Part shown: positions 6,310 to 64,000 of the stretch, piece by piece
Layout: every line of letters starts with the position of its first letter
How positions within the stretch are numbered: position 1 is the first letter of the stretch
Origin: a virus
Taxonomy: Duplodnaviria; Caudoviricetes
Length of the DNA stretch: 64,000 nt
Virus record (IMG/VR): IMGVR_UViG_3300014205_000002
Span: 144,265-208,264 of that record
Direction: 5' to 3' (one strand)
Notes under the pieces: model-generated
What the model saw: the letters and a program-made list of their open reading frames with translations, nothing else
What the model was told of the DNA's origin: nothing
The model's database searches: none
Program-made: the position numbers and the translations under genes

Positions 6310-6350
6310 CCGAGGGTCCTCCAGGCTATAGTTTAGCACGGCTTCTGAGG

Positions 6351-6398
6351 CTATTATAGGGGGAGCGGCCGGATGGTCGGTCCACCGTGCCGTATAAT
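6351..6398. promoter_or_regulatory. Divergent promoter region
   Basis: TATAAT on the - strand (6353-6358) and on the + strand (6393-6398) between divergent genes. TGGTCGGTCCA lies at 6374-6384. Confidence 0.55.
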
Positions 6399-6428
6399 AT
6401 GGGTAGGGCCAACGGTCCATGAGGTGAT

Positions 6429-11278: not shown

Positions 11279-12769
11279 CTATTTGATCTCCTTGATGCGC
11301 TTCATAGCATCGGCATCGTCGATCGGACACACGCGCATCCGCTCGACGAGACGGGGCCACCGCTCGCCCACGGCCTGGGCCATAAGCGTGGCGGCGATGC
11401 GGTAGTTCAGATGCCCGCCGGGCTTCGTCCGCAACTCCACGAGGCTGTAGAGCTCACGGAGGTTGCAGGCGAGGATGGCGCGCTTGTTGTAGCACATGGG
11501 CACGCAGTACTGCGCCACGAGCCGGCCGCACTGGGCCTCGATGTTCTCATAGAGCGCCTGGACCCCGAGCATGGCGTTCGCCCAGCGCTCGGTCAGATCG
11601 TAGCGGCCAGCGGCTTCCGGTAGATGGAAGCCGAGGTAGGGGTCGAGCGGCTGCTCGACGTGTAGGCACATGCGGTGACGCTGGAGGTCTCGCCAGGTAC
11701 CGAAGTCCAGCGTGAGGTCGAAGGTGTGGGGGTAGAGTTCCAGCGCACGCGGTGCGCCGTCGCGCTCGCCACGGCTCTCAAAGATGGCGTTCCAGATCGC
11801 CGAGAATTGCGTCTCATTCAGGCGGGCAATTGCGAACAGGAGGCGATTGTGGTCGACATTGACGTAGGGGTAGAGCGCCTGAGCGACGATGCGCTGCTCC
11901 GGCGGCCAGGCCCCGAGCAGCTCGACAGCAGGGCTGTCGGCGTGCTGGACCTGGCGTTCAAACGCGATCACGGAGGCGGCGATCGCAGCCATGGTCTCGC
12001 GGTAGGCCACCGGGTAGGTCTTGGGTGCGACGTACTTCACTAGCGTCGGCAGCTGTGACTGAAAAGTGGTCTTGAGACCCAAGCCGAGCGCGCGGGCCTC
12101 AGCAAGGTCGTGGCTGAGCAGCTTACTCACGCTGTGCTCGACGGTGCGCGCGTTGGCGACGTAGCCGACCATCGTCGTCGCCGAGGCCGGCAAGATGCCG
12201 CGAGCGACATCGAGGGCCTTGGCGCGCAGGTTCGCCGCATAGAGTGCCTCGCTCATGTCGGGCGATCGCGTAGCTTCGCCAGCGAAGGCCGCCATCAGGT
12301 CGTCCAGGGTCTCCTGGTAGAGCGCAAACAGGCCCATGCAGTGGTCAATGTAGGCCTCGCGCAGGCCATGGAGCGTGTCGTCCAGTTCGTCTGGCACGAT
12401 GAAGCTCGTGGGCCCCCAGGGCTGGTAGCGGGTCGAGGCCTCAACGTAGGAGCCGAGCCGGCCGTCTTCAAGCGCCTTGGCACAGAGCATGGAAATGTTC
12501 TCGACGCAGGCGTGACCGGTCGCCAGCTCCGCGACCGAGGCGTGCCCGTACCCCAGCACGTACTTGTCGTGGAAGGTCGAGGCCTTCTCCTTGGTTAGCA
12601 GGCCCGCGTTCTGGCGGAAGGGCAGCGGCGATCGCGAGGTCTTGGCGAGCGCGACCGCGACCTCCTCGGGTGTGAGCAGGGTGTCGCGCCCAGGAACCTC
12701 ATGGAAGAGGTGATAGGCTTCCTGGGGCTTACGGGCGACCCGGTAGGCTTCATAGAGGGTCTTGGACAA
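11279..12769 (-). CDS. thyX: Flavin-dependent thymidylate synthase, long double-domain form
   Basis: GYGHASVAE, EASTRY, DVARGILPAS, FGTWRDLQRHR, ELRTKPGGH. Confidence 0.88.
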   Translation of the reverse strand: MSKTLYEAYRVARKPQEAYHLFHEVPGRDTLLTPEEVAVALAKTSRSPLPFRQNAGLLTKEKASTFHDKYVLGYGHASVAELATGHACVENISMLCAKALEDGRLGSYVEASTRYQPWGPTSFIVPDELDDTLHGLREAYIDHCMGLFALYQETLDDLMAAFAGEATRSPDMSEALYAANLRAKALDVARGILPASATTMVGYVANARTVEHSVSKLLSHDLAEARALGLGLKTTFQSQLPTLVKYVAPKTYPVAYRETMAAIAASVIAFERQVQHADSPAVELLGAWPPEQRIVAQALYPYVNVDHNRLLFAIARLNETQFSAIWNAIFESRGERDGAPRALELYPHTFDLTLDFGTWRDLQRHRMCLHVEQPLDPYLGFHLPEAAGRYDLTERWANAMLGVQALYENIEAQCGRLVAQYCVPMCYNKRAILACNLRELYSLVELRTKPGGHLNYRIAATLMAQAVGERWPRLVERMRVCPIDDADAMKRIKEIK

Positions 12770-18185: not shown

Positions 18186-18214
18186 GGGGTCTGACCAAAC
18201 ATTGGTCAGACCCC
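18186..18214. repeat. Perfect 13-bp inverted repeat made of two GGTCNGACC boxes
   Basis: GGGGTCTGACCAA-ACA-TTGGTCAGACCCC between dut and the SLT gene. TACAAT on the - strand at 18158-18163. Confidence 0.85.
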
Positions 18215-22507: not shown

Positions 22508-25021
22508 TTACTTGCAGCGCGAGTAGCCGCAGGTCGGGTTGATGCACTTGGCACAGCCCTCGCCGTGGTCGAGACGGCTGCCGCAGTCGGGGCATTCGGG
22601 GGTTTCGCCCTGATCGAGGGCGTGCAGGTTGGCGGCGTGCTGGGCGTTCGGTGCTGGCGGCAGCGGAAGCGGCAGCGCGAGGCCCAGGGCGAAGGTCACG
22701 GCCTCGCGGGGCGCGAGATCGATCGGACCACCGGACCAGGTGAGCGGCGCACGCCGGATCGCCTTGCCGATCGCATCTGGCACCGAGAGCACCTGGTTGT
22801 CGCCGAACCCCGAGGGGTCGGCCCCGCGGATGCCCACCAGGGCATGCGAAATGTCCTCGACGGGCACGCGGTGCTGGAGTGCCAGGCTGATCAGCTTGCC
22901 GATGGCCTCGCCGAACGAGTTCAGTGTGCCGCCGGAGCGCCCGATGTTCGTCACGACCTCGCGCAAGCCCTCCTCGTCGTAGTTGAGGGTGGTGTAGAGC
23001 TTGCCCTCGCCGACCTGCTTGGTCATGGTGAAGCCCGTCAGGACCTCGGGCCTGATCCGTTTGCCCGCCCGCATCTCTGCCATCAGGCTATCGAGACGCG
23101 CCTGGAGTTCGGCGAGTTGGGGCGGCGGGGCGATCGCCGCGGGGGCGGTCACCTGGGTGAGCGAGAGCGGCTGTGCCTCGCGGGAGTTGTTGCGGTACAC
23201 GGTGATGCCCTTGCAGCCCGTCTCGTAGGCCAGGTGGTAGGCTTCCTCGACGTCCGCCTCGGTCGCGCTCTCAGGGAAGTTGATCGTCTTGGAGATGGCC
23301 GAGTCGTTGAAGCGCTGGAAGGCGGCCTGGGTGTGAACGTGCTGGGCCGGGCTGATGTCGTGGGTGGTGACGAAGATGCGCGCGAGGTTGAAGAGGATCT
23401 TCATCTCGCCCGTCGTGAAGAACAGGGCCCTATCAAAGGGGTTGTCCGCCACCAACTCGTTGAGCGAGCCGTGGTAGTGAGTGTCCAGCGCTTCGAAGAC
23501 ATAGGCGATGCGTGCGTCGTCGAAGCCCTTGGCCCGGAGCGCGTCTGCGAACACGCGATCGGCGTCGAACATGTGGGTATCGGCCTGGAAGCGCTTGAAG
23601 GCCAGCGCGAAGACGGGCTCGCAGCCGCCCGAGGTATCGGCGATCATGGAGAGGGTGCCCGTGGGCGCGCAGGTCGTGGTGTTGGAGTTGCGCAGGCCGT
23701 GGATGTCGACTTCGTCGGCGAGCCAGTCGTAGCGGCAATCCTTGTGCTTGCCGGGGCGCGCGTGACGCTCCATCAGCATCTTGCGGAAGATGGCGTTGGA
23801 CTCGGCTTCGTGGCCGATGCGCGCGGGGAAGACGCCACGGGCCTTGCCTAACTCCAGGCTCTTGACCTTCGATTCGTAGTCGATGAAGCTCATGACCTCT
23901 TCGGCGAAGGCCAGGCCCTCGGGGCTACCGTAGGGGATCTGGAGCTTGAACAGCGCCCGGGCGAAGCCCATTACGCCGAGGCCCGTCTTGCGGGTGGCGT
24001 TCGAGACCTCGGCGATCTCAGGGATCGGGTACTTGTTCGCGCTGATCACGTTGTCGAGCATGTGCGCCGAGGTGTGAACGACGCCGCGCAGACGCTCCCA
24101 GTCGAAGAATGTGCAGTCGGGGCCGCCCTGCGGCATGTCCATGACGAACTGCTCCAGGTTGATCGAGCCGAGATTGCAGGATTCATAGGGGATTAGGGGC
24201 TGTTCGCCACAAGGATTGGTGGCCTCATACTTGCCCAACCAGGGCACGGGGCAATACTCGTTCATGCGGTCGATGAACACGATGCCCGGCTCACCCGTGG
24301 TCCAGGCGCGCTTGACGATCTCCTTGAAGACGGGCCGCGCGCGGATTCTGTCGGTATCCTGGCCTGTGCGCGGGTTGATCAGGTCGTAGTTGTTATCATG
24401 AACGACGGCGTCCATAAACCTGTCGGTGATCGCCACGGAGATGTTGAAGTTCGTGAGTTTGGAGAGGTCTTCCTTGTGGCTGATGAAGCTCAGGATGTCC
24501 GGATGATTGACGCGGAGGATGCCCATGTTCGCGCCACGGCGCATGCCGCCCTGCTTGATGCTCTCGGTGGCCGCGTTGAACACGTCCATGAACGAGATCG
24601 GACCCGAGCTCTCGCCCTTGGTGGACTGGACCATATCCTTGGCCGGCCGCAGGCGCGAGAAGGCGAAGCCGGTGCCGCCGCCGGTCTGGTGGATCAGGGC
24701 GGCGTTCTTGATGGTTTCAAAGATGCCCGCGAGGTCGTCGGGTACAGGCAGGACGAAGCAGGCCGAGAGCTGGCCCGTGCGGGTGCCGGCGTTCGCCAGC
24801 GTGGGTGAGTTCGGCAGGAAGTCGCCGTCCCAGAGGAGTTGGAAGAACGCCTCCTCGACGAGCGCCGTCTGCTCGGGCGTCTGGCCATGTTGCAGTTCGA
24901 CGGCTGCCAGTGTGCGCGCGACGCGCCGCATCATCTCGATGGGCAGTTCGATCAGGTTGCCTTGGGCATCCTTTTCAAGGTAGCGCTTCTCCAGTACGGT
25001 GATGCCGTTCTTGCTCAGCAT
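22508..25021 (-). CDS. nrdJ: Class II (adenosylcobalamin-dependent) ribonucleotide reductase
   Basis: PNSPTL, GQLSACFVLP, GGGTG, RRGANMG, TNPCGEQ, CNLGSIN, APTGTLS, SKTIN, KGITVYR. C-terminal TSCPD-like domain and CPDC..C..C. Confidence 0.95.
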   Translation of the reverse strand: MLSKNGITVLEKRYLEKDAQGNLIELPIEMMRRVARTLAAVELQHGQTPEQTALVEEAFFQLLWDGDFLPNSPTLANAGTRTGQLSACFVLPVPDDLAGIFETIKNAALIHQTGGGTGFAFSRLRPAKDMVQSTKGESSGPISFMDVFNAATESIKQGGMRRGANMGILRVNHPDILSFISHKEDLSKLTNFNISVAITDRFMDAVVHDNNYDLINPRTGQDTDRIRARPVFKEIVKRAWTTGEPGIVFIDRMNEYCPVPWLGKYEATNPCGEQPLIPYESCNLGSINLEQFVMDMPQGGPDCTFFDWERLRGVVHTSAHMLDNVISANKYPIPEIAEVSNATRKTGLGVMGFARALFKLQIPYGSPEGLAFAEEVMSFIDYESKVKSLELGKARGVFPARIGHEAESNAIFRKMLMERHARPGKHKDCRYDWLADEVDIHGLRNSNTTTCAPTGTLSMIADTSGGCEPVFALAFKRFQADTHMFDADRVFADALRAKGFDDARIAYVFEALDTHYHGSLNELVADNPFDRALFFTTGEMKILFNLARIFVTTHDISPAQHVHTQAAFQRFNDSAISKTINFPESATEADVEEAYHLAYETGCKGITVYRNNSREAQPLSLTQVTAPAAIAPPPQLAELQARLDSLMAEMRAGKRIRPEVLTGFTMTKQVGEGKLYTTLNYDEEGLREVVTNIGRSGGTLNSFGEAIGKLISLALQHRVPVEDISHALVGIRGADPSGFGDNQVLSVPDAIGKAIRRAPLTWSGGPIDLAPREAVTFALGLALPLPLPPAPNAQHAANLHALDQGETPECPDCGSRLDHGEGCAKCINPTCGYSRCK

Positions 25022-32260: not shown

Positions 32261-32589
32261 CAGGCCTTGGGCTCCGCGTTCTTGAGTTTGTCGATCTTCC
32301 GTTGGGTCGCCTGCGTCTGGCGCACGAGAGCGTCGCGCCGGCCGGCCAGATGCAGCAGCAGCTCGCTCTTGGCGCGCTCGAACGTCGAGAAGCACTCGGC
32401 GACGTGAATCTCGTTGCCGCGGCCGGTCTCGGCCCTGACCCACTGTGTTCCGCTGCCGAGCATGCCGCGCCAGGGCTTCACGCCCGTGACGGGAACGACG
32501 CCGGTGCGGCCCTTGTTCCAGGCGAAGCAGCTGACAGGGACCTGGTTTGACTGCTGATATTCGGGGTTCCAGTTGTGCTGGGTATTCAT
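32260..32589 (-). CDS. Hypothetical protein
   Basis: 109 aa, SD GGAGG. Confidence 0.65.
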   Translation of the reverse strand: MNTQHNWNPEYQQSNQVPVSCFAWNKGRTGVVPVTGVKPWRGMLGSGTQWVRAETGRGNEIHVAECFSTFERAKSELLLHLAGRRDALVRQTQATQRKIDKLKNAEPKA

Positions 32590-32951
32590 TTCAATCCAAG
32601 CCTCCGATTGATGACGCTCGCGAGCGGCAGGTAGTAGTCGATGTGTTCGGTGGGCTCGCCTGTGCCCTTGCGCAGGCGCGGGACCGCCACGAGGTAGCGC
32701 GGCGTGGCTGACCGCAGCAGTCCCTTGATCTTACTCGCGGGCACGCATGCCGATCTGGCGTGCTCGCCATGGGGGTCGTAGACGGGTTTGCCCGCGTGTT
32801 TGGCGATCGCCTCCTGGGCGCTGGCGTGGCTGGGGATGAACGCGAGGATGGTTCCGCTTTTTGAACGCGTACAGCCGCCCGCCTGGCTCGACCACAGGGC
32901 CGCAACTCCAGGTGTAGCCCTGTTGTACTTGGCGTCGTTGTCGATTCTCAT
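32586..32951 (-). CDS. Hypothetical protein
   Basis: 121 aa, SD GAGGAGG. Confidence 0.65.
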   Translation of the reverse strand: MRIDNDAKYNRATPGVAALWSSQAGGCTRSKSGTILAFIPSHASAQEAIAKHAGKPVYDPHGEHARSACVPASKIKGLLRSATPRYLVAVPRLRKGTGEPTEHIDYYLPLASVINRRLGLK

Positions 32952-32970
32952 TGACAGAATCCTCCTCGGG

Positions 32971-33222
32971 TTAATTGGTCAGCTTCTCGACACAGGCGAT
33001 GACGTCGTCGACGCTGTTGATCTTCTCGGCTTCATCATCGGACATCTCAATGTCGAATTCGTCTTCGATCGCCATCACCAGTTCCACTTGATCCAATGAG
33101 TCCGCCCCGAGATCTTCGTCGAACTTGGCCTCGCGGGTCACGACGTCCTCATGGACACCGAGTCGCTCTGTGACAATAAACCGGATGCGGTTGAAGGTGG
33201 CGGTCTGGTTGATGGCGTCCAT
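32971..33222 (-). CDS. acpP: Acyl carrier protein
   Basis: [40 protein letters not shown], with the phosphopantetheine-accepting Ser intact. Confidence 0.95.
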
Positions 33223-33552: not shown

Positions 33553-34377
33553 TCAGGCATTGGTCACCCAGGGGTTCTCGCCATTGGGCCCTGCGGGCAG
33601 GGAGAGATTGGCGGGGAGGCCGACGGTGTGGAATTCGTGCGGCCGCCATTCGTGGCCGCAGCCCTTGACGTGGTGCGGGCTGTGCGGGCTGCTCTGATCC
33701 TTGTCGAAGTAGGTGTAGTCCACGCAGCGGTGGGTTTTGTGCGGTATGCAGGCCCATTCTCCGGTGTCGACGTGGCGCATCCCGCAGCCGGGGCAGAACA
33801 GATGGTCGGCGATCGGCCTTGCGTGGCTGACCAACTCCCGCCAGTTGGCGGGGATGATTGGCACCTCGTCGTCGCACCACCAGGCCCCGACGCGGAAGAC
33901 CGCGAGCACGCTGTTGATGTCGTCCGCGAGGTCGCGCACCCACTTCGGCAGGTCGACCTCGGTCCAGCCCTCGGTGCAGATGTCGGGCATGTTTTCCGTC
34001 ATCTCCGCGGTGATGTGCTTGAGCAGGGGCTTGAGGTAGTCCCCGTCGAGGCGATCGCGATCGTCGTCGGGCAACTCCTGCTCGATCATGCCCAGCAGTC
34101 CCTCGGAGTTGAAGGGCAATTCGGAGTCGGCGGGGACGCCTTCCTCAAAGGGGATGAAATCCTGAATGGTGTCACCGAGGTGGCTCGCGGTCACCGAGGC
34201 GGCGCGGAAGCGGGCGATCCACGGCTCCTGGCTGTCTGGCTCAATCTCGGCGATCGCGCAACTTTCCAGGAAGGTCTGGAGGTCGCTGGAGAACTCACTG
34301 CCGCGCCGGAGGGCGATCATCTCGCCCTCTTTCCACGCGACGCGGGGGGCCTCAGCCCAGGTCGGCTCGTCCGACAC
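33553..34377 (-). CDS. Hypothetical protein with a C-terminal Cys/His Zn-binding domain
   Basis: GTG start coupled to the upstream stop. CPGCGMRHVD..HKTHRC..CGHEW. Confidence 0.65.
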   Translation of the reverse strand: MSDEPTWAEAPRVAWKEGEMIALRRGSEFSSDLQTFLESCAIAEIEPDSQEPWIARFRAASVTASHLGDTIQDFIPFEEGVPADSELPFNSEGLLGMIEQELPDDDRDRLDGDYLKPLLKHITAEMTENMPDICTEGWTEVDLPKWVRDLADDINSVLAVFRVGAWWCDDEVPIIPANWRELVSHARPIADHLFCPGCGMRHVDTGEWACIPHKTHRCVDYTYFDKDQSSPHSPHHVKGCGHEWRPHEFHTVGLPANLSLPAGPNGENPWVTNA

Positions 34378-35081
34378 TAGACCAGCTCCGCGTCGAGTTC
34401 GCACGCGGCCGGAAGCGGAGCAGCGGTCAGGCGACCAGGTGCCCATGAGCCAGCGGCGATCGCCTCACGATCGGCGAGAGTGGGCAGCTGCACCTGGCAC
34501 TCGGGGACCAGGCGCAGGATCTCTTCGCGGGTGGTCGCCGTATTGATGACGGTGCGCTTTTCGGTCATCTCCAGGTTGTAGGCGTCTGTGGCTGCCTTCT
34601 CCGCAGCCTCGAACTGGCGGTTATAGGCCTTGATTGGCTGGTTGCGATCGCGCTTGACGTGGTTGACGACGTCTTCGGAGGCGGCAGTGCCGTCGCTGCC
34701 GCTGTGGTTGATCATCAGGGTGCCCGAGCTGTGGACAGCCATCGGTGCGGCCTGGTAGCCATAGGTCTTGGCGACGGACTGAGCGAGTGCGAGGACAGCA
34801 TCGAGGGCAATCTTGTACTCGGGCGTCAACGCAATCTCCGCCTGGATGTCCTTGAGAACCTCCGAGGTCTGGAGCAACTTCTGGCACTGGGAGACCGGCT
34901 CTGGGCGCTTACGCAACCGGAACAACTCCATCATCTGGGCGCGCTGGGCCTGGGTCAGCCGGCCCTCCTTCATGAGCTTGAGCTCGGCCTTACGCAGGTC
35001 GATCTCAGCCAGGCGAATGCGGGTCTCGTCGCTGGGCTGGGCGACGGCGAGGGCGGTGGAGGTCTTCTTCGGGGTGGCCAT
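34377..35081 (-). CDS. Helical hypothetical protein
   Basis: 234 aa, SD GAGG. Confidence 0.7.
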   Translation of the reverse strand: MATPKKTSTALAVAQPSDETRIRLAEIDLRKAELKLMKEGRLTQAQRAQMMELFRLRKRPEPVSQCQKLLQTSEVLKDIQAEIALTPEYKIALDAVLALAQSVAKTYGYQAAPMAVHSSGTLMINHSGSDGTAASEDVVNHVKRDRNQPIKAYNRQFEAAEKAATDAYNLEMTEKRTVINTATTREEILRLVPECQVQLPTLADREAIAAGSWAPGRLTAAPLPAACELDAELV

Positions 35082-35106: not shown

Positions 35107-35138
35107 TGACAGAATGAGGGGGAGCGTGTGGCGATCGC
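35107..35138 (-). promoter_or_regulatory. Bipartite motif GCGATCGC-N14-CATTCTGTCA, copy 1
   Basis: Intergenic, upstream of the 35081 start. Same layout at 36769 and 38331. Confidence 0.65.
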
Positions 35139-35346
35139 GGGTTAGGTGCCGGGGATGCGCAGTTGCTGACCGGCAACCGTGACAACAATGGGGGTGCGGG
35201 ACTGCAAGTTCGCGAACAGGGCCTCGAACTCGGGAGTTCCTCGCCTGGCCTGGATGTCGATGGAGAACTCCATCACCTCGTCGGGCAGTGGTCTGTCGTC
35301 GCGATCGCTCCATGAGGCGCGAAAGACGAGAGGAGCCTGGGCGTCC

Positions 35347-35847
35347 TCAGGCCATCACCATGCGGGCCGAGGTGTACTTCTTATAGAGCGGGTGGTTGGG
35401 CTGGCCGGTCTTGGAGAGCCCATCAAGCGAGTGCAGGAGGTGCTCGCTCAGGAGTTTGCGCACGGCCTTGTCACGATTGAGGAGCTTGCCGTGGTTGCCC
35501 CAGGCAGCGATCAGGAGCTGACTGTCGTTGGCGGCCTTGAGGATGGCGGCGTTGTTGCGGGGGCCAACGCAGTCGATCTCGTAGGCATTGTCTTTGAGGA
35601 CGGCGGGGCTTGTCTCGCGGTAGGCGAAGAGGTTCGCGACGGTGATGCCGCCGTAGCCCCATTTGTCCGCGAAACCCATGCACTTGCGAATGGTGGCGTC
35701 GTCGACCTCGGCGTCAGCGGTCGATGGGTTGAGCATAATGAAGCCGACGAGACCGGCTTCCGGCTTCCAGATACGAGTCAGGGCGTAGCGATACAACCCA
35801 GACTCGCAGAGGTCGGCGGTCTTTGTGATGACGGTGTCCTTTTCCAA
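35347..35847 (-). CDS. DUF1643-family protein
   Basis: YRYALTRIW, FIMLNPSTAD..DDATIRKC, NLFAYRET, IAAWG, PNHPLY. Confidence 0.88.
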   Translation of the reverse strand: MEKDTVITKTADLCESGLYRYALTRIWKPEAGLVGFIMLNPSTADAEVDDATIRKCMGFADKWGYGGITVANLFAYRETSPAVLKDNAYEIDCVGPRNNAAILKAANDSQLLIAAWGNHGKLLNRDKAVRKLLSEHLLHSLDGLSKTGQPNHPLYKKYTSARMVMA

Positions 35848-35852
35848 GGTGG

Positions 35853-36494
35853 CTAGTACCTTTCTCTCTCGGCTGTGAAGCCGCCGTTCCCGCAGTTAAA
35901 GCAGAGCGTGCCTTCGACCTGGACCTTGCAGTAGTGCATGACGTTGCACTCTGAGCAGCGTCGCCATTCGGTCCCAGGCTTTGGCCCAGGCTCTCCAGGC
36001 AGGCGATCGCGGATGGGCTTCATCGGGTAGGTGGGCGGGAACGGCGGTGCTACAGGAAAAACGTAGGGGACCTTCTCCACCACGAACTCTTCGGGGGCAA
36101 GGAGCGCGGGGCGATCACCCCGAGCGTTGCGCCAGATTAGCTCATGGAGGACTGCGTCCACATCGTCGGGCATGCGCGCCTCCATGTGCTTGAACACGAC
36201 GTCAGCTACGGCCACCTTTCCGGCGATATCAGTGGGCAAGATCGGCTGAGGTGGCGGTATCTGGGGTGGTGGAGGTGCTTGGCGCTGGGTGAGCAGAGCC
36301 CGCATCTCGTCGACGGTGACACCCAGGCCCAGTACGGTCTTGGCGGTCTTGGCGTGAGCGACCTGCTCGCGCCGCAGGGCTTCGGTGAGCGTGGCGATCG
36401 CCAACTCGGCCGTGGCTACGTCCCCAGCGAGTTGGGCTGCACGGCGCTGCGACTGGACCGCACGCCGATCCCATTGCACGCTGAGTGTAGACAT
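35853..36494 (-). CDS. Hypothetical protein, coiled coil plus C-terminal Zn ribbon
   Basis: CSEC...CFNCG. Confidence 0.65.
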   Translation of the reverse strand: MSTLSVQWDRRAVQSQRRAAQLAGDVATAELAIATLTEALRREQVAHAKTAKTVLGLGVTVDEMRALLTQRQAPPPPQIPPPQPILPTDIAGKVAVADVVFKHMEARMPDDVDAVLHELIWRNARGDRPALLAPEEFVVEKVPYVFPVAPPFPPTYPMKPIRDRLPGEPGPKPGTEWRRCSECNVMHYCKVQVEGTLCFNCGNGGFTAERERY

Positions 36495-36754
36495 TACGCT
36501 TTGACCTCCGACGCGCTGAACTCGATGAAGTTCTCGACGAACTCCGGCCCCATTACGATGGCCTTGTTCGCCAGGGCGGAGACGATGTCCAGTTGGAGCA
36601 AGGCGGCATCGCGGTAGTGACCGATGGGTGTGCTCTCGACGATGGTGTCGTAGAGCTTCTTGACCTGGGCGCGAACCGCGGTGATCGCAGCGACATCAGC
36701 TTGCGTCGGCGCTTGGTAGTCATGAGGGTGGCGGCCGGCGTAGGATTGGGTCAT
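36494..36754 (-). CDS. Acb2/Tad1-like helical-hairpin protein (candidate nucleotide-signal sponge)
   Basis: HDYQAPTQAD..ITAVRAQVKKLYDTIVESTP..RDAALLQLDIVSALANKAIV. SD GAGGAG. Confidence 0.55.
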   Translation of the reverse strand: MTQSYAGRHPHDYQAPTQADVAAITAVRAQVKKLYDTIVESTPIGHYRDAALLQLDIVSALANKAIVMGPEFVENFIEFSASEVKA

Positions 36755-36768
36755 ATGGTGCTCCTCGT

Positions 36769-36800
36769 TGACAGAATGTGATCGACTCTATGGCGATCGC
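36769..36800 (-). promoter_or_regulatory. Bipartite motif GCGATCGC-N14-CATTCTGTCA, copy 2
   Basis: Intergenic, directly before the SD of the 36754 gene. Confidence 0.65.
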
Positions 36801-36802
36801 TT

Positions 36803-37162
36803 TCAGGGGGTGATGGGGTTTCCGTTGGCGTCCCGCAGGAAGAAGTAGAGCTTGCTCTTATCGGTGTCGCTGATCGACACGCAGATGGCACCCAGGCCTT
36901 GGAGTGGGCCCTCGTCGAAGATGCCGAACAGGCCGTTGAGGACACCGAGCAGGCCCACCACATAGCAGTGCTCGTCCTGCTGGGTAGCAACATTGACGAC
37001 GGTGCTGCTCTTTGCGACCTGGACTGTTGGGTGATCCGCCAACTCCAGGGTATTGACGCGGGTGCGGATCTCGACCAGGTTGTGGATCGCTCCTGGATCC
37101 AGGCTGGCGAGCTCATTCAAGAAGCGCACTAACTCGGCGAGCGTGACGGAGGGCTTGATCAT
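36803..37162 (-). CDS. Hypothetical phage protein
   Basis: 119 aa. LADHPTVQV..VGLLGVLNGLFG. Confidence 0.7.
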   Translation of the reverse strand: MIKPSVTLAELVRFLNELASLDPGAIHNLVEIRTRVNTLELADHPTVQVAKSSTVVNVATQQDEHCYVVGLLGVLNGLFGIFDEGPLQGLGAICVSISDTDKSKLYFFLRDANGNPITP

Positions 37163-37165
37163 GGC

Positions 37166-38305
37166 CTAGTAGCCTTCGTGTTCGTGGATGGTGTAGTACT
37201 TCGTCGCGAGCATGGCCGGACCAGGCTCAAGGACCACGTCTTCATCGGGGTCGTCCTTGAGGATTGAGTCCCGCTCAAGCTCGGCTGAGGCCTTGCTTGG
37301 GCAGGTCATTGGCGAACTCTGCCGAGGGCCCACTTTGTAGGTTTGGAGCGTGGTGTTGCCGCATTCGCTGTGGAGCGCGCCGCCCGCGCCGACGCCCGTC
37401 CGAACGACCCAGCAGCCGGTGCGAATTGGCACCATTAGATTGCAGTGGAGGCAGCGGATTCCCTCCAAGCGCCCATGGCCGAAGACCGAGTAGCCAACAC
37501 CCTCGTCGGTCTCGGCCGCACGACTGAGCGCCTTGCTATGAAGGTTGGCAGCAGCGGCATCGAGCCCGTACTGCTCGTGTGGCACGGGTGCCTCGACGCT
37601 GTATGAGTCGCCCTTGGCATAGTCGATACCGATCACGCTCTCGGCGTTGAGGGCGATCGCGTCGATCTTCTCGGCACCAGGCAGGACGAAGCAGGCTGAC
37701 AGCTGTCCAGTGGGCTTGCGCCTGGGCAGGAGGCGATCGTCCACGCCGTAGAGGGTGAGCAATGCGAGGTCGCCGCCGGCGTGGTAGGTGACCTCGACCT
37801 GGGGGCCGCCCTCGACCTCGTGCTCGGCGTCGAGTATCTCGATGCCCTGGGTCTTCATGAGGGTGACCAGACGCTTGGCCTGTCGAACCATTCCCGCAGG
37901 GTCGATGCCGATGTGAATGAAGCTCTCACTGGAACGCGCGCCCGCTTCAATCTCAACGGGGACGAAGCCAGCTCCGGTGAGCAGCTGCCAAGTTCTGAGG
38001 ATATTGGCAGGCACTTCGTCGTGGGTGATGGGCTCCGCGAGAACGATGGCGCAGTCTTCCTCGTCGGTGCCCTCGAAGTCGAGCGCGTAGCACTCGTCGG
38101 CGATCGCGATGACCGCCTCCGCGCGCGAGTTGATCTTGCTGATGCGATCGTTGGTGATGTGGCAGTAGACCTTGCCCACTTCCTGAATGGCCGTGTGGTA
38201 GTCGAACAGCTCGCGCATCACCTTGTCGGGGTCGAGTCGGCCCGTCGCCGGGTCTTCCACGAGGGGCTTCCAGAAGCTGGCGTAATTCTTCTCGTAGTCT
38301 TGCAA
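37166..38305 (-). CDS. Mosaic hypothetical protein containing an RNR active-site peptide
   Basis: TTG start, SD AAGGAG. Internal TGQLSACFVLP. Confidence 0.7.
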   Translation of the reverse strand: MQDYEKNYASFWKPLVEDPATGRLDPDKVMRELFDYHTAIQEVGKVYCHITNDRISKINSRAEAVIAIADECYALDFEGTDEEDCAIVLAEPITHDEVPANILRTWQLLTGAGFVPVEIEAGARSSESFIHIGIDPAGMVRQAKRLVTLMKTQGIEILDAEHEVEGGPQVEVTYHAGGDLALLTLYGVDDRLLPRRKPTGQLSACFVLPGAEKIDAIALNAESVIGIDYAKGDSYSVEAPVPHEQYGLDAAAANLHSKALSRAAETDEGVGYSVFGHGRLEGIRCLHCNLMVPIRTGCWVVRTGVGAGGALHSECGNTTLQTYKVGPRQSSPMTCPSKASAELERDSILKDDPDEDVVLEPGPAMLATKYYTIHEHEGY

Positions 38306-38330
38306 TCCGGGCTCCTTTGGCTCTTGCTGC

Positions 38331-38361
38331 TGACAGAATGTGGCAGGTGCGAGGCGATCGC
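38331..38361 (-). promoter_or_regulatory. Bipartite motif GCGATCGC-N13-CATTCTGTCA, copy 3
   Basis: Intergenic, upstream of the 38305 start. Confidence 0.65.
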
Positions 38362-38368
38362 GCTCCCC

Positions 38369-38875
38369 TTACTCGCCGGTCTCGGGAAGTTTGGTCGTGC
38401 CGTCCTTCGGCAGGCGCTCCACGATGCGCCTGAACACGCGCTCCAGTCGATCCGACTGTTCAATTAGACGAGCCGCCTCGATGGCGTGGTGGCGCGCTTC
38501 CGGGCTGGCGTTCTCCGAGATGACGGCGAAGGGAGCCATGTCCGTCGAGTAGACCTCGCAGAGCGTGACGGCGAACTCCGCCTCGTCTCGCGTCAGCATG
38601 GCATACCCCAGCGTGTTGCCGTTTGCGCGGCCTGACGACTCAGCTACGTCCTGCTTGCTCATTGTCTGAATGGTCCAGTGGTACACATCGGCCGGTAGTC
38701 CGAACGAGTGGTCTTTTCCCTTGAAGATGACCATCCCTGGTACGACCGACAGGCCAATGTGGCTTGGATGCGGGTCCGACGGAAAGATTTCCGTGATGTC
38801 CTTGTAGTCCGTTTTCAGGGCCTTGCAGACGACTTTTACGGGCATATCCAGGGTTCCTTTCGGTCGCTTAATCAC
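38369..38875 (-). CDS. Hypothetical protein
   Basis: First gene of the leftward block. Start may be MPVKV. Confidence 0.65.
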   Translation of the reverse strand: MIKRPKGTLDMPVKVVCKALKTDYKDITEIFPSDPHPSHIGLSVVPGMVIFKGKDHSFGLPADVYHWTIQTMSKQDVAESSGRANGNTLGYAMLTRDEAEFAVTLCEVYSTDMAPFAVISENASPEARHHAIEAARLIEQSDRLERVFRRIVERLPKDGTTKLPETGE

Positions 38876-38898: not shown

Positions 38899-38942
38899 AT
38901 TATACGCCTATGTGCGACAGGAAGCAAGCAAGGTGGTATAAT
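38899..38942. promoter_or_regulatory. Divergent sigma70-like promoters at the strand switch
   Basis: - strand TTGCTT-N17-TATAAT (38927-38899). + strand extended -10 TGGTATAAT (38934-38942). Confidence 0.7.
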
Positions 38943-39042
38943 CCGGGCGTATTCACCGGCAGACCCGTGCGGACCGTTGGTCATACCACGCGCACAATCA
39001 ATGGATCAGTGTAACTCTGACGACAGAGAGGATGTGATTGCG

Positions 39043-40308
39043 ATGGATCATCGCGTACAGCTCCGGACCATGGTCGTAACCGAGGGCGAGGCCCTGCTCG
39101 ACCTCAAGGATCGCCTGGTCTCTCCGACCGCGCGGTTCCACACTCTGGGTGCTCAAGCAGGCGACCTTGTGGATCTGATTGGGCCAAGCGGGCAGCACGC
39201 TGCTGGTCGGATTCTACGGGTGGTGAGCGAGACCACGCTCGTGATCGAGGGCCAGCCCGAGATGGGCTTCGGCGCGCTGTTCGGCGGCGACCCACGGGAA
39301 GACGGAGTTGGCGATGAGATTGTCGTTCAATGCACGGTGGTACGGTTGGTTGCCGAGCCCTGCCGCCACTGCGAGGAACAGGGCGTTCCCGCCGAGTCGG
39401 ACCATCGCCACTGTTTGTCCTGCCGGGAGCGCATCCCGCTCGCTCGCGACACCCGCTACGCCAACTGTGACGTGTGCATCCGGGGTATGCGCGCGCGTCT
39501 GGTCGCGGGCAACGCGATCGACCAGGAGTACGCGATGTTCAACGGCAAGTTGAAGGTCAAGGTCCACGCCCGAACGGCGGAGGAGGGCGACTTCGTCCAG
39601 GAGTGGCAGGACCACTTCCAGCGCGAGCTGGGTGGGCGCACGACTGCCTACTTCCTCGACGAGGTCGCGAAGGCCTGCCTGGCTGTGGTGCTCGACGACG
39701 ATGGCAACGGCAACCGGCCGATGGCCGTGGTCGAGGATCCCGATCTCGACGCGAAGATCGCGGTGGCGCTCGCGATGAAGTTCTTCAAGGATCAGCGCGA
39801 GAGCCGCTACAAGCTCACGCTCTCTTGCATGAGCCGTCTCGACAAGCTGGTCGAGGAGGCCTGCTTCTACCGCATCGTCGAGAAGGACACCAAACAACAG
39901 GTCGAGGCCCTGGCCGAGCAACTCTGCACAAGCACGGGGCCAGTGACCGGTGAGGTTGAGCTCTGGGATGGGATGGAACGCGTGACCTTCTGGGATCCCA
40001 CCAAGGAGCTCAGCGACGAAGCCGACGGCTACGCCGAGACCATGATCGCCGCCTACCTCGCCAGCTCCCGCGGTGTGCTTCATATGTCGGACGCCCGCAA
40101 GACGTTCACCAAGACGGTCTGTCGCTTGGCCTGCCGCTTCGTGGGTGATTCCAAGGTGAGCTACCAGCCGACCGGCGACTTCAAGCAGCGGCTGGGTTAC
40201 CTGCTGTCGCTGCCGCTACCGCTCTACTATCTCTACATGACTGCGGCGAACGTATGGGATCGCCGGGTGCTGCGCGCAGGGAGCCCCGAAGTCGTGGGAA
40301 ACTCCTAA
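39043..40308 (+). CDS. Putative tail assembly chaperone (gpG-like) with N-terminal extra domains
   Basis: Ends GTG GGA AAC TCC TAA, containing slippery GGGAAAC. Three CxxC pairs in the N-half. Start could be 39001. Confidence 0.55.
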   Translation: MDHRVQLRTMVVTEGEALLDLKDRLVSPTARFHTLGAQAGDLVDLIGPSGQHAAGRILRVVSETTLVIEGQPEMGFGALFGGDPREDGVGDEIVVQCTVVRLVAEPCRHCEEQGVPAESDHRHCLSCRERIPLARDTRYANCDVCIRGMRARLVAGNAIDQEYAMFNGKLKVKVHARTAEEGDFVQEWQDHFQRELGGRTTAYFLDEVAKACLAVVLDDDGNGNRPMAVVEDPDLDAKIAVALAMKFFKDQRESRYKLTLSCMSRLDKLVEEACFYRIVEKDTKQQVEALAEQLCTSTGPVTGEVELWDGMERVTFWDPTKELSDEADGYAETMIAAYLASSRGVLHMSDARKTFTKTVCRLACRFVGDSKVSYQPTGDFKQRLGYLLSLPLPLYYLYMTAANVWDRRVLRAGSPEVVGNS

Positions 40309-41058: not shown

Positions 41059-41075
41059 CAATGGTCTGACCATTG
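41059..41075. promoter_or_regulatory. Perfect palindromic operator CAATGGTC-T-GACCATTG
   Basis: Lies between a TAGACA...TAGAGT promoter-like pair and the GGAGG SD of 41090. Confidence 0.75.
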
Positions 41076-41583: not shown

Positions 41584-41733
41584 ACACGTTGGTCGGACCA
41601 GGTGGGCGGATGCGCACTTTCGTTAGGAAGTCACGGCAGCATGTCTCAACGCAGTCAGTGGACTCTCGGGATCGACGGATCGTCTCAAGCCGGAGCGAGA
41701 CCGCACTTAGGCGGCGAACGGAGCGTCGCAGCG

Positions 41734-42345: not shown

Positions 42346-42723
42346 ATGAGTTCACAGGTTTTGTGGATGGGCAACCTCAAGCCCGGCCAGAAGCGCGAGG
42401 GCCCTGCCTTCGGCATGGGTACCCTCGTATCCGGCAGCGGCAGTACCACGGCGAGCGCGATGCTCGACTTCTACGCCGAGATGTCCCAAGTCGAGCCAGA
42501 CGTCCCGAACCACAAGCCGATCTGCGCGCAGTCGCTCACGCCCGTCGAGTTGGAGTTGATCGACGTTCAGTGGCCCGAGGGGCACTGTGGTGGCCGGGTG
42601 TCGATCGCCAATACCTCTGGCGAGGAGATCGAATTCAACGTCGCGTTCACCGTCTTCTCGCGCGAGGAGGTCGTGGCGCAAACGCTTGCGGCTATCGCTC
42701 GCCACAAAGGTGAAGGCCTGTGA
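42346..42723 (+). CDS. Hypothetical protein
   Basis: Start MSSQVLW, SD AAGGA. Confidence 0.65.
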   Translation: MSSQVLWMGNLKPGQKREGPAFGMGTLVSGSGSTTASAMLDFYAEMSQVEPDVPNHKPICAQSLTPVELELIDVQWPEGHCGGRVSIANTSGEEIEFNVAFTVFSREEVVAQTLAAIARHKGEGL

Positions 42724-43724
42724 CCAACAATATGATCATCATCGGTGGAGGCCCTGCCGGCTACACCGCGGCCATCTATGCTGCGCGCGCAGGCCTGGAG
42801 CCTCTCGTCATCGAGGGGCCTCGTCCAGGCGGCCAGCTGACCATCACTACAGACGTGGAGAACTATCCAGGCTTTCTGGAGATCACAGGGCCGGAGCTGG
42901 TGCAGCGGATGCGTGAGCAAGCGGCGCACAACGGCGCGCGCTTCATGACCGACACCGTCCAGCGAGTCGAGTTCGGCAGCCACACCCACAAGGTCGAGAC
43001 GGTCAGCGAGCAACTCGCCGCTCATTCGATCATCATCGCCACAGGGGCCAATGCGAAGTGGTTGGGCATCCCCGGCGAGCAAGAGTACATGGGTAAGGGT
43101 GTGTCCGCCTGTGCGACCTGTGACGGGCCCATGCTCTCGCGGATGCTCGGCCCTGACGCCAGGATCGCAGTGATCGGCGGGGGTGATACCGCGTGCGAAG
43201 AGGCGCTCTACCTTGCGGGCTTACCTGGCTTCGGCCTCGTCTATCTGGTGGTACGCAGGGGTGAGATGCGCGCTTCGCGGATCATGCAGCAGCGCGTAAT
43301 GAACCACCCGAAGATCCACATGATCTGGAATCGCGTGCCCCTGCGCTTTGAGGGCCACGAGACCCTGGAGTACCTAGCGATCACGGTACCCGACTGCCCG
43401 GGCGGACCTGGCCTCGGCGAGAGGCTCCATATCAAGGCAGCCTTCGTGGCGATCGGCCATGAGCCTGCCACGGCCTTCCTCAGGGACCAGGTCATCCTTG
43501 AAAACGGCTACATCATAACTGGTCATCACGGCCAGGTGGCCAGACACCAAGGGACGTTCAGCAATCCCGACGGCCCCTTCATTCCTGGCGTGTTCGCCGC
43601 CGGCGATTGCGTCGATCATGAGTTCCGCCAGGCGGTCACGGCGGCGGGGATGGGGTGCAAGGCAGCTATGCTCGCCGAGCGCTACCTCTCAGCGATGGAC
43701 CCCTTCCCCCTCACCACAACCTAG
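42720..43724 (+). CDS. trxB: Thioredoxin-disulfide reductase
   Basis: IIGGGPAGYTAAIY, GGQLTITTDVENYPGF, CATCDG, GGGDTA, GVFAAGD, RQAVTAAG. Confidence 0.95.
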   Translation: MTNNMIIIGGGPAGYTAAIYAARAGLEPLVIEGPRPGGQLTITTDVENYPGFLEITGPELVQRMREQAAHNGARFMTDTVQRVEFGSHTHKVETVSEQLAAHSIIIATGANAKWLGIPGEQEYMGKGVSACATCDGPMLSRMLGPDARIAVIGGGDTACEEALYLAGLPGFGLVYLVVRRGEMRASRIMQQRVMNHPKIHMIWNRVPLRFEGHETLEYLAITVPDCPGGPGLGERLHIKAAFVAIGHEPATAFLRDQVILENGYIITGHHGQVARHQGTFSNPDGPFIPGVFAAGDCVDHEFRQAVTAAGMGCKAAMLAERYLSAMDPFPLTTT

Positions 43725-45962: not shown

Positions 45963-46229
45963 ATGCCCAAGAAGCCTGGCCCCGAGAAGGGCGATCCACG
46001 CATGGTTGAGGCTGGGAAAAAGGGCGGCGCGATCATGCGCGAGCGTGGCCCTGAGTTCTTCCGCGAGATCGGCAAGAAAGGCGGCCAGGCGACAAAGGAC
46101 AAGCATGGGCCGGACTTCTTCTCCAAGATTGGCAAGAAGGGCGGACAGTCCATGAAGGCGGCTCGCGGCTCAGAGTTCTTTGCGGACATCGGCCGCAAGG
46201 GCGGGGCCACCGAGCGCAAGAAGTCGTGA
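45963..46229 (+). CDS. KGG-repeat stress-induced protein (GsiB/YciG-like)
   Basis: Four ~20-aa repeats of the form G.EFF.EIGKKGG. Confidence 0.88.
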   Translation: MPKKPGPEKGDPRMVEAGKKGGAIMRERGPEFFREIGKKGGQATKDKHGPDFFSKIGKKGGQSMKAARGSEFFADIGRKGGATERKKS

Positions 46230-61048: not shown

Positions 61049-64000
61049 ATGCCTGTAACCAACATCCCGACCCCGGTGGTCGCCATCCCCTTCGACGGAC
61101 GGAACGCCGTCTACATCGAGGGGGTTTACTGCGCGTTCTCTCAGGTCCAGCTAGTCACCGAGGATGGCACCGTACCCCGCCTCCAGCTGACCATCCCTGC
61201 GACCGAGGAGATGGTGACGCTGCCGCGCCGCGCGCGCGTCCACGTCATGCATCGCGAGATCATCAAGGACGAGTGGGTCTGCCTGATGGAGGCGGAGGTC
61301 GTACGGCGCGGCTGGCAGAAGAACGACTCCAACCGCGATCTGTACTTTGAGGCGGCCCATGTAGTCATCCACCTCGACAGCTACTCGATCCAGAGCCTCG
61401 ACCCCGCCCAGGCCACCATGGCGGCCATGCGCGGAACCGACCTGACCACCCCCACGATGGGGGCGGCGCTCGGCAACATCATGGAGTTGCTGCATCCGGA
61501 TGCTGTACTCGCGGAGCTGGCGCTCCTGGGCATCACCATCAAGCAGAGCGAGATGACGTTCGCCCACTGGACGATCGCCGCCTATCAGCGCTACACCAAG
61601 CTAATCGAGGCCTCGCGGGTCCGGAACAGCTACTCGCACCGCGCGACCCAGTTCCACCGCCTGTTCGACCGGGTGGTCACGCCAGACCCCGCACTGATGA
61701 AGTGGGACGAGTTCTACACCACGCTCATGAGCATGGTATTCACGCAGAGTGCTCAGGGCTTCGGCGGTGAGATCAGCTTCTTTCAGCTGATCCAGACGGT
61801 CGCCCAGCACTTCCTCTACAACGTCAGCGTGGTGCCGAACGCCGAGCACTACAAGCACCAGATCCAGGTGCGGCCGCAGACCTTCTTCAATGCGATCCCG
61901 CGCTGCAATGTGGTCTACCCCAGTCTCTCCGAGAACATCGACTTCATGGAGAACCTGGAGACCAAGCCCACGCGAATGATGGCGCAGTTTCTGCCGCTCG
62001 GCACGAGCCCGAGCCAGGACCTCACGGCGCTCGCGCGCTACATCACCGTGTACGGCCCGAACGAGCTCCAGTGGCGCTGGAAGAACATCAATAAGGCCCT
62101 GACCGCCGGCGGCACGAGCCAGGCTGGCGTCGCCAACGTTGACGCCACCACCAAGGCGCTCACGGTGACAGCCCCGAAAGACGGCATCCCCTTCCTCACG
62201 CGCGAGGAGGATCAGCGCGGTATCCGCTCGGAGTCCTATGCGATCCCGCCGACCCTGAACGCCGCGATCATGGCGCTCGTCCAGAAGGGTCCGGCGGTCG
62301 AGGAGGACAGCCCCCTGCCCACGCCTGAGGGCGACGATGCGATCGGCAGCCAGGCCTTCACCATGCTGCGCGCCGACGACGAGGGCAGTCGCATCACGAA
62401 GTACTGGTCCTTCCTCTGCATGGCGCTCGGTGACGGCAACGGCATCGATCCGAAGAAATTCGCGGGCCCCTACAAGAAGCTCGGCCAAGGCCTGGTGGTT
62501 GCGCCGACCAAGGGGCGTTTCGTGGGTCAGCCGCTCATGCGACCCCGACGCATCACGATCATGGGGCTCAAGATCCCCGTACGCTACGGTGAGGGCAAGA
62601 ACTACAAGCCGGTGCTGAACGTCGAGCCCTTGCAGGCCGCTGGCGTAAACTATTACATCGACCGCAAGGGCACCATCATCCAGGTCCTTCCCAGGCGCTA
62701 CCATCTGTTCTCCGAGCCCGTGGCGCTGCCCCTAGGGGTGGTCGTCCAGGGCGTGAGCAACGAAGAGGCGCGCCTGATCAACCTCCAGATGCCGCCCAAG
62801 AACCTGAGCTTCAAGGCCTCGGCGGCGCTCGCGAAGGCGAACTTTACGGCCTTCATGCAGGCCCCCTGGCCGGCCGCACTCACGGCTGCGGGTAAGGGGC
62901 AACCCGTTGGCGGGATCATCAACCAGGTCTTCTTTGACTCAGCCTGGGTCGCTGCGAACGTCCCCGAGGGCATGCACTTCATTATGGAGGATGCGAAGTT
63001 CGACAAGATCGCCCCCGGCGACGAGGTGACGATCGCGAGCTACTCGCCCTCGGGCGGGCCCACGCGACAGGAGACCGGCATCAAGGTCGTCGAGAAGCTC
63101 AAGGTGGGCACTGTCTACTGGATCAGGCTCTCGCGTGCAGTCATCAAGCGGGGCGACCAGGTGGCCTTCAAGATCGTGAACACGCTGGCTCCGGACACGG
63201 GTGCGACCACGGCGAAGCCCTGGCTAGTCATGGGTCAGGCCCCGGCTGCCGGCGCGCCGACCTTGCCGACCTCGACCCTCAATCGGATCGACGATCCGAT
63301 TCGCGAAGAGAGCAAGGTCACGGGCGGCAACCACTTCAACCTGGTGATCGGCCTGGAGTTGGAGGACAAGGCCTCTCAACCCACAAAGGAGCAGATCGTC
63401 GCGGCTGGCTTCCTCACGGCTGTCGTCCGCGAGTTGTCGGGCGACAAGGCCGGCACCGCCAAGCAGAAGCTGAACAGCGAGAGCGCCCGGGGTGTACGCA
63501 TCCCCTTGTCAGCGGTGCGCCAGGCCAAGGACTACTTCTCGACGTCGGGATACCCCTATGCGGAGCTGGGGGGTGCGGTGGTGCAGATTCGCTCCGAGGC
63601 GGCGATCATCGGCAATCGCCTCTATGCCGACTTCAATCGCTTCGACGAGGGCCTGCGCAAGGGTGGATTCTCGCCACTCGCAGACAAGATCGAGGTACCG
63701 TCCGAGGTGGCGGACTCAACCCTCCAAGCGGACATCAACGCTGGCTCTGTGGTGCAGCGTACGTCGGCGATCGCCAACAGCGCCAGCGCAGGCAAGGACG
63801 CAGTGACGGTGTCACGCATCGATCTCGACACCCAGAGCATGGCGTACTTCATCGACAAGTACGCCGCAGCCCTGGTGAACTTCCAGTTCTACAACGTGCG
63901 CTTCGGGCCCCAGGCCTTTGCGATGAAGATGGTCTTCAACCCCTACATGATCGTGGGTTACCCCTCGCTGATCCTCGATGACTCAGACGCGCGCTACCAT
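61049..64000 (+). CDS. Baseplate hub-like protein, 3'-truncated (absent from the ORF track)
   Basis: ATG 61049 with SD GAGG. Segments I translated are in one frame, from MPVTNIP..VYIEGV..LQLTIP to FNPYMIVGYPSLILD at the window end. Contains an amidase-like segment. Confidence 0.65.
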   Translation, partial: MPVTNIPTPVVAIPFDGRNAVYIEGVYCAFSQVQLVTEDGTVPRLQLTIPATEEMVTLPRRARVHVMHREIIKDEWVCLMEAEVVRRGWQKNDSNRDLYFEAAHVVIHLDSYSIQSLDPAQATMAAMRGTDLTTPTMGAALGNIMELLHPDAVLAELALLGITIKQSEMTFAHWTIAAYQRYTKLIEASRVRNSYSHRATQFHRLFDRVVTPDPALMKWDEFYTTLMSMVFTQSAQGFGGEISFFQLIQTVAQHFLYNVSVVPNAEHYKHQIQVRPQTFFNAIPRCNVVYPSLSENIDFMENLETKPTRMMAQFLPLGTSPSQDLTALARYITVYGPNELQWRWKNINKALTAGGTSQAGVANVDATTKALTVTAPKDGIPFLTREEDQRGIRSESYAIPPTLNAAIMALVQKGPAVEEDSPLPTPEGDDAIGSQAFTMLRADDEGSRITKYWSFLCMALGDGNGIDPKKFAGPYKKLGQGLVVAPTKGRFVGQPLMRPRRITIMGLKIPVRYGEGKNYKPVLNVEPLQAAGVNYYIDRKGTIIQVLPRRYHLFSEPVALPLGVVVQGVSNEEARLINLQMPPKNLSFKASAALAKANFTAFMQAPWPAALTAAGKGQPVGGIINQVFFDSAWVAANVPEGMHFIMEDAKFDKIAPGDEVTIASYSPSGGPTRQETGIKVVEKLKVGTVYWIRLSRAVIKRGDQVAFKIVNTLAPDTGATTAKPWLVMGQAPAAGAPTLPTSTLNRIDDPIREESKVTGGNHFNLVIGLELEDKASQPTKEQIVAAGFLTAVVRELSGDKAGTAKQKLNSESARGVRIPLSAVRQAKDYFSTSGYPYAELGGAVVQIRSEAAIIGNRLYADFNRFDEGLRKGGFSPLADKIEVPSEVADSTLQADINAGSVVQRTSAIANSASAGKDAVTVSRIDLDTQSMAYFIDKYAAALVNFQFYNVRFGPQAFAMKMVFNPYMIVGYPSLILDDSDARYH

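Follow-up and report, generated by a model that had tools for sequence, protein, structure and literature searches.

Can a palindrome that is scattered over a whole genome serve, at a few places, as part of a signal for gene expression? The question is raised by a stretch of 64,000 nucleotides (nt), referred to below as the window, which is the last 64 kb (positions 144,265 to 208,264 of IMG/VR record IMGVR_UViG_3300014205_000002) of a complete 208,264-bp tailed-phage genome with direct terminal repeats and 64% GC from a landfill metagenome. On its minus strand the palindrome HIP1 (GCGATCGC) stands a short, nearly constant distance ahead of a second word, CATTCTGTCA, in three gaps between small genes. 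An earlier note on this DNA took the pair for a phage-specific class of promoters, with HIP1 at -35 and CATTCT at -10. We found that the three sites are real and not a product of chance; judging from the alignments, the element is conserved within a narrow clade of phages; several readings of its mechanism are weighed below. A fixed new promoter class is not supported, because the spacing of the two parts is too variable and the copies are too few. The reading that we favour, tentatively and at a little short of an even chance, is that of a small duplicated cassette of internal promoter and gene leader in one hypervariable early operon, in which HIP1 may act as an auxiliary box near -30.

The three bipartite sites lie on the minus strand where the earlier note had placed them (sites A, B and C in Table 1). 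All are intergenic and stand shortly before a start codon, and one of them directly precedes a gene resembling Acb2/Tad1. The lone ATTCTGTCA that had been described ahead of the start at 32951 was found as well (site E). These four sites belong to a leftward operon of small genes and are found within its first 6 kb. There are five copies of ATTCTGTCA in the whole genome, four in the window and one inside a gene; an upstream HIP1 is missing from two of the five.

HIP1 itself is common, with 52 copies in the window and 120 in the genome. Still, the chance of finding it at 13 or 14 nt, given its local density, is only 0.0044 per site, so that its pairing with the downstream word is not accidental; for three of five sites p is ∼1e-6 if the sites are taken as independent. 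No bipartite match occurred in 100 dinucleotide shuffles, and four of the five genomic copies of ATTCTGTCA are crowded into 5.4 kb of a single strand (p = 3.5e-5). The region is reproduced without a difference in a Logan contig from what is probably the source run; this rules out an assembly slip, but is no independent evidence; one contig joining 37712 to 28000 was taken as an edge artefact. Pattern scans of public data returned single unrelated matches only, which we treated as chance (4 and 14 viral contigs, 7 genomes, 16 metagenomes), and the repeated element was found in no other public contig scanned.

The nearer relative of the phage, Logan contig L037, of which 59 kb were examined (73% sigma factor identity, 55% mean protein identity and 68% nucleotide identity), carries a syntenic operon. 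Several further searches for relatives gave no match. All four ATTCTGTYA words in these 59 kb are in this operon and in sense orientation. Seven copies from three phages were aligned; CGATCGCC and ATTCTGTYA are invariant in all of them, while the spacers between the two words are unrelated. CATTCT had been proposed as the conserved unit and as the -10 element; it is not the conserved unit, since the base ahead of ATTCT is C, G or T, and its place is taken by the core ATTCTGTYA. An intact HIP1 and a spacer of 13-14 nt occur together in five copies, with scrambled spacer sequences. The orthologue of site A (L037:7083-7114) has an intact HIP1 and a spacer of 14 nt. A further full copy (L037:8115-8145; intact HIP1, spacer of 13 nt) is located within the coding sequence of the 440-aa orthologue of gene 37166-38305. 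There it uses the rare codons TAT and TCT (7 of the 155 Tyr codons and 7 of the 329 Ser codons), and our genome encodes the same Tyr-Ser-Val at this position without the motif. At -2/-1/+1, as counted from the putative -7 T, all five well-spaced copies have purine-C-purine, with the last purine 7 nt after this T.

Not all orthologous copies keep the spacing. At site B of the nearer relative an open reading frame of 52 aa separates the two halves, which are ∼144 nt apart; the site C orthologue (about L037:11130) has a spacer of 10 nt and a broken palindrome; in a third phage (L038) the site A orthologue has a spacer of 18 nt, a broken palindrome and a position inside the first codons of another gene. 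Site E is missing from the orthologous junction of the nearer relative. The three mis-spaced copies all begin with CCGATCGCC, a variant making up ∼10% of such sites (Fisher p = 0.018, post hoc). The -35/-10 geometry is seen in the five copies at 13-14 nt and not in the orthologous ones with spacers of 10, 18 and ∼144 nt, which have a perfect core. As to the idea of a phage-specific promoter class, conservation in two relatives and the purine-C-purine at the predicted start speak for it, whereas the box is missing from two of the five copies here and the motif is missing from a more distant relative (see below). All 10 copies found are on the sense strand, and nine of them lie within the first 6 kb of the operon.

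The junctions that hold the sites are also places of gene turnover. Gene content differs between the two genomes at three of three bipartite junctions and at two of nine others (p = 0.045; one genome pair); the extra open reading frames of the relative at the three bipartite junctions encode 43, 52 and 133 aa. Site A of our genome reads like a deletion between two copies of GCGA that are 122 nt apart in the relative. The 28 nt past the core at site A of the relative resemble the leader of the non-orthologous site C of our genome (z = 6.2, the joint best score among the leaders of this genome), and this suggests that whole leaders have been duplicated.

In the favoured reading a short gene-leader cassette would have been duplicated in the promoter-proximal, hypervariable part of one early operon. 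It is known that sigma70-family proteins rely most on the -11 A and the -7 T of a promoter. Read as -12 to -7, NATTCT keeps both bases and leaves leaders of 12-23 nt in the four intergenic well-spaced copies. Each full cassette would consist of an internal promoter and such a leader with a ribosome-binding site; the core ATTCTGTYA would span the -11 A and the -7 T as well as the discriminator, with transcription starting at the purine 7 nt past the -7 T. An auxiliary contact for sigma region 4 or for a phage activator, helpful rather than obligatory, would be provided by the HIP1-derived box GCGATCGCC, which has its centre near -30; that the core is perfect in mis-spaced and box-less copies indicates that the box is not required. 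Without it the core would act as a long signal of the -10-only kind. The cassettes could restart transcription of small host-interaction genes, the Acb2/Tad1-like gene among them, downstream of a host-type promoter at 38927-38899, and would also mark the junctions of gene gain and loss. What we observed is the sequence of the sites, their conservation, orientation and spacing, and the gene turnover at the junctions; that they act as promoters, where transcription would begin, which polymerase or activator would take part and whether methylation plays a role we infer from these features.

A number of observations weigh against an internal promoter. The base at -12 is C, G or T, with T in only one copy, so that the match to a sigma70 -10 element is poor, and a scan with the consensus sigma70 promoter calls none of the sites. 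A repressor would fit the position of site E, between a Shine-Dalgarno sequence and the ATG, better than a promoter does. Perfection of the core at spacers of 10, 18 and ∼144 nt means that it either works without the box or does something else. In G311, a complete family-level relative (42% mean identity over 94 genes), no ATTCTGTYA-like site was found, despite the presence of both sigma factor orthologues, of the CCTATAAT motif and of 10-mer enrichment. HIP1 sites in general are conserved at 20-30%. None of the three to four copies precedes polymerase or replication genes, and the spaced intergenic copies that the earlier note expected elsewhere did not turn up: the other 144 kb of the genome hold no further convincing bipartite copy, even with two mismatches allowed. 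As the copies are paralogous, the p-values overstate independence, and both Fisher tests (palindrome variant and gene content) were chosen post hoc.

Several of these observations would be accommodated if ATTCTGTYA were an asymmetric site for a phage regulator acting after initiation, either as a DNA roadblock of the stoperator kind or as a site in mRNA near translation starts, with HIP1 inherited along with the duplicated leader. We consider such a site unlikely. Its copies are always sense-oriented, clustered just downstream of an early promoter and perfect with no box or at the wrong spacing; one lies between Shine-Dalgarno sequence and ATG and two in the first codons of genes. The stoperators of mycobacteriophages are asymmetric, intergenic and orientation-dependent as well (PMC9283540). 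What this explanation does not account for is why five copies whose spacers are scrambled keep them at 13-14 nt, and why this spacing goes together with an intact palindrome. No copy overlaps the head promoter of the operon, and the sites are far fewer than the >20 of phage L5. We found no RNA fold shared by the sites, no consistent complement in three candidate-host 16S rRNAs and no cognate repressor among 10 small candidate proteins.

Duplication could also be the whole story. The sites would then be recombination junctions or their relics: a HIP1-bearing leader was duplicated, its HIP1 is kept by selection acting genome-wide and promotes gene gain and loss, and neither part has a role in transcription. 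We rate this as rather improbable. HIP1 is indeed enriched over synonymous codon shuffles throughout the genome (the 8-mer 2.5-5 fold, the 10-mer 7-fold), with equal density within and between genes, and the gene turnover at all three junctions, with the deletion-like site A, is what one would expect of such relics. Methylated HIP1 raises recombination in Synechococcus 7002 (10.1101/2024.09.10.611283), and a XerC/D-like recombinase is encoded in the same operon as the sites. Other local repeats of leaders exist in this phage family as well, which makes the present leader less unique. A second family, of the CATTGAAAGGAG type, is located at 89.7-94 kb of the genome (L012:9700-14000) in another cluster of small genes; in G311 GGGACCACC occurs seven times, always on the plus strand near gene starts (e.g. 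L070 near 143919), and is a possible analogue of the motif studied here. Against mere relics, a neutral 9-mer would not stay intact at 68% nucleotide identity, including within genes where it takes rare codons, and the spacer length is constrained in five copies. Sites of tyrosine recombinases have inverted arms, and the sites in question have none.

A bolder variant of the promoter reading, in which a phage sigma factor or activator would read methylated host HIP1 as an upstream promoter element, so that early counter-defence genes would be switched according to whether the phage DNA, on entry or just after replication, is methylated, appears to us improbable. The strict form of the original proposal, a phage sigma factor that needs HIP1 as -35 and CATTCT as -10 and is switched by GATC or CGATCG methylation, is very improbable: the spacing in five copies, the polymerase, two sigma factors and three methyltransferases of the phage, and the occurrence of methyltransferases of the Dam family in 28 of 29 genomes from the class of the candidate host agree with it, but copies are confined to one 6-kb cluster, the first base of the -10 varies, mis-spaced and box-less copies keep the core, and G311 has conserved both sigma factors and lacks the motif.

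Other candidates were tried and rejected. A host regulon was not seen: 47 genomes from the candidate host class hold no bipartite site, and each high-GC genome has 0-2 copies of the core, in unrelated contexts; judging by these scans, the sites are not a host signal. At the boxA position (identified by eye) three rRNA leaders of candidate hosts read GGACHTTGAYAA, with no match of the core to this Nus boxA. A conserved RNA structure was dropped, since no hairpin at the sites exceeded the level of shuffles, no terminator was called there and Rfam gave no match, as was pairing with 16S rRNA on the result given above. Read on the reverse strand as a TTGACA-type -35, the element is followed by no -10 at a constant distance. 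A Pho box was discarded because there is no 11-bp tandem repeat.

As in cyanobacteria (PMC4390886, PMC5861425, PMC6331805), HIP1 and its 10-mer extension are over-represented here (576 per Mb; 17-fold and 58-fold over base composition); the difference is that the host of this phage is apparently non-photosynthetic. The 10-mer GGCGATCGCC occurs 206 times per Mb in the phage and 96 times per Mb in a Leptolyngbyaceae genome; three genomes from outside the cyanobacteria (Myxococcales, Burkholderiales, Acidimicrobiia) have 24-29 per Mb. Among 301 Cyanobacteriota genomes the best matches of the phage acyl carrier protein are in several genomes with 67% GC. Four high-GC candidate host genomes (G110, G131, G020 and G035) have no reaction-centre genes and carry GGCGATCGCC at 83-262 per Mb; in a fifth, G017, it is found at only 6 per Mb. 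Compared over its full length, the ribonucleotide reductase of the phage shares 66% identity with that of one candidate host, while controls gave partial matches of 29-43%. Comparison of 40 kb of phage DNA with 47 genomes revealed no convincing match of the CRISPR spacer type, with short matches not inspected. From these similarities we infer that the host belongs to a high-GC non-photosynthetic lineage of Cyanobacteriota, a class which, going by the GTDB class structure, we take to be Sericytochromatia. A side observation may also touch on the host: TGGCCA, GTGCAC, TTCGAA, CTGAAG and CTCATC are strongly avoided in the whole phage genome, which suggests that they are targets of host restriction.

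A promoter role for HIP1 had been thought new. A regulatory role was proposed earlier via Sll1130, and later disputed and not reproduced (PMC6331805), and a genome-wide study saw no association of HIP1 with promoters (PMC5861425). Gloeobacter is without HIP1, and our literature search returned no report of HIP1 in high-GC Cyanobacteriota lacking reaction-centre genes.

Table 1. Sites and neighbouring features; positions are those of the window unless the genome is named
Feature	Position	Strand	Description
Head promoter of leftward operon	38899..38927	-	Canonical sigma70-type, read from sequence: TTGCTT, 17 nt, TATAAT
First operon gene	38369..38845	-	158 aa, no family
Site A	38331..38361	-	GCGATCGC, 13 nt, CATTCTGTCA; 7 nt past stop of 38369-38845, 25 nt before TTG of 37166-38305; predicted +1 at 38328
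Gene after site A	37166..38305	-	379 aa, TTG start
Site B	36769..36800	-	GCGATCGC, 14 nt, CATTCTGTCA; 2 nt past stop of 36803-37162, 14 nt before Acb2/Tad1-like gene; predicted +1 at 36766
Acb2/Tad1-hairpin-like gene	36494..36754	-	86 aa, directly after site B; candidate nucleotide-signal sponge
Site C	35107..35138	-	GCGATCGC, 14 nt, CATTCTGTCA; 3 nt past stop of 35142-35273, 25 nt before 34377-35081; predicted +1 at 35104
Gene after site C	34377..35081	-	234 aa, kept across phage family, no known function
Acyl carrier protein gene	32971..33222	-	Upstream of site E; served as host clue
Site E	32952..32960	-	Lone ATTCTGTCA, no HIP1 upstream; between Shine-Dalgarno sequence and ATG of 32586-32951
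Fifth ATTCTGTCA	L010:874-882 = genome 40874-40882	-	Inside a 359-aa gene, sense strand, no HIP1 upstream

Promoters similar to the head promoter of the operon stand at the same place in three relatives. In our genome (38899-38942) it overlaps with a divergent, rightward extended -10 promoter, also of sigma70 type, ahead of gene 39043-40308. The Acb2/Tad1-like gene was identified by a Pfam match below the cut-off (E = 0.012), Atlas features (0.89) and TM values of 0.70/0.92; a PDB sequence search with the Acb2-like pair gave no significant match. The phage has genes for subunits beta and beta' of a multisubunit RNA polymerase (Pfam domains Rpb2 and Rpb1), the sigma factor that the earlier note suggested looking for in the form of two sigma70-like proteins encoded at 4937-5647 and 61957-62919 of the genome, and three DNA methyltransferases (C5, D12 and T1-type Dam). 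A single frame of 1955 aa at L008:9898-15765, with an intein and a LAGLIDADG domain, joins RNA polymerase beta to the start of beta', and the remainder of beta' is at L009:65-1915. Elsewhere in the window are genes for ribonucleotide reductase (22508-25021), ThyX (11279-12769), thioredoxin reductase (42720-43724) and a KGG-repeat stress protein (45963-46229).

Other repeated words were seen near genes. The top leader motif genome-wide is CCTATAATA, which has no -35 partner (e.g. at 6300-6430 of the window) and is common to G311; it is probably a late promoter of the phage polymerase, and G001 has GGCTGATAATTCC in its place. The palindrome TGGTCNGACCA occurs at 38978-38988, 41062-41072, 41590-41600, 28716, 28789 and 18187-18213 of the window and at many places genome-wide, with seven of nine perfect matches intergenic, and is also present in the relatives and in G311; presumably it resembles operators of the FadR/GntR family. 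In a distant relative (L060:8660-8780) two copies of GGCGATCGCC share one intergenic gap at a distance of ∼60 nt, and 13 nt past the first of them stands GGTTCT, a pairing which may be due to chance.

HIP1 has no accepted function at the level of single genes, and here, in more than one phage, a few HIP1 sites keep a set distance to a rare conserved word. The sites are a short and mutable substrate with predicted start sites. Should HIP1 turn out to be read in methylated form at these promoters, this would be a specific gene-level function for it, in a phage of a non-photosynthetic sister group of cyanobacteria. Even as mere shuffling cassettes, the sites show how a family of phages encoding RNA polymerase swaps its early host-interaction genes. 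That HIP1 is enriched in high-GC non-photosynthetic Cyanobacteriota, and in phages that probably infect them, has a bearing on its origin and may be of greater importance than the motif itself.

Among known systems, mReC phages (PMC7481178) are similar in having tailed-phage genomes of >200 kb with beta and beta' subunits; the main text of that paper does not contain the words ‘promoter’ and ‘sigma’. The stoperators of Cluster A mycobacteriophages (PMC9283540) share with our core an asymmetric word oriented with transcription (10 of 10 in sense here) in short intergenic gaps. They are, however, 13-mers with >20 sites, including promoter operators, and a known repressor; here we have a 9-mer with four to five sites, none at the head promoter, and a spaced partner box. 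The SAS and ESAS of Cluster K phages (PMC3203893) are likewise asymmetric repeats closely preceding starts, some of them with a further element upstream at a distance that varies, and their function is unproven. In these phages the Shine-Dalgarno sequence is part of the SAS, and the ESAS is an inverted repeat of 17 bp, whereas the core discussed here, with HIP1 as its partner, may stand before the Shine-Dalgarno sequence, after it or far from it.

Our sites come close to T4 middle promoters in geometry and to PeSL cassettes in placement and gene turnover, but they lack defining traits of both, as they do of stoperators and of boxA. The PeSL cassettes of the T4-type phages RB49 and phi1 (PMC2839356) are also short repeated regulatory cassettes in hyperplastic regions, at junctions of gene gain and loss; they differ in having a strong sigma70 promoter and a terminator stem-loop and in forming mini-circles, while our sites have no consensus sigma70 promoter and no hairpin. 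T4 itself has ∼60 middle promoters with a strong TATAAT match and known MotA and AsiA, compared with three full copies here in the 208 kb, with a poor base at -12, tolerance of mis-spacing and a box that is a genome-wide palindrome; general Pfam scans of ∼40 phage proteins gave no MotA/AsiA-like pair, with no search aimed at them. The MotA box of T4 stands 12 +/- 1 bp from the -10 (PMC2988021), and the distance from HIP1 to the 9-mer here is 12-13 nt in five copies, not so in three orthologous ones, with two copies having no box. What the well-spaced copies have in common with T4 is a 9-bp box, other than TTGACA, near -30 and ∼12-13 nt from the -10 region, placed within operons that have an early promoter upstream (PMC2988021).

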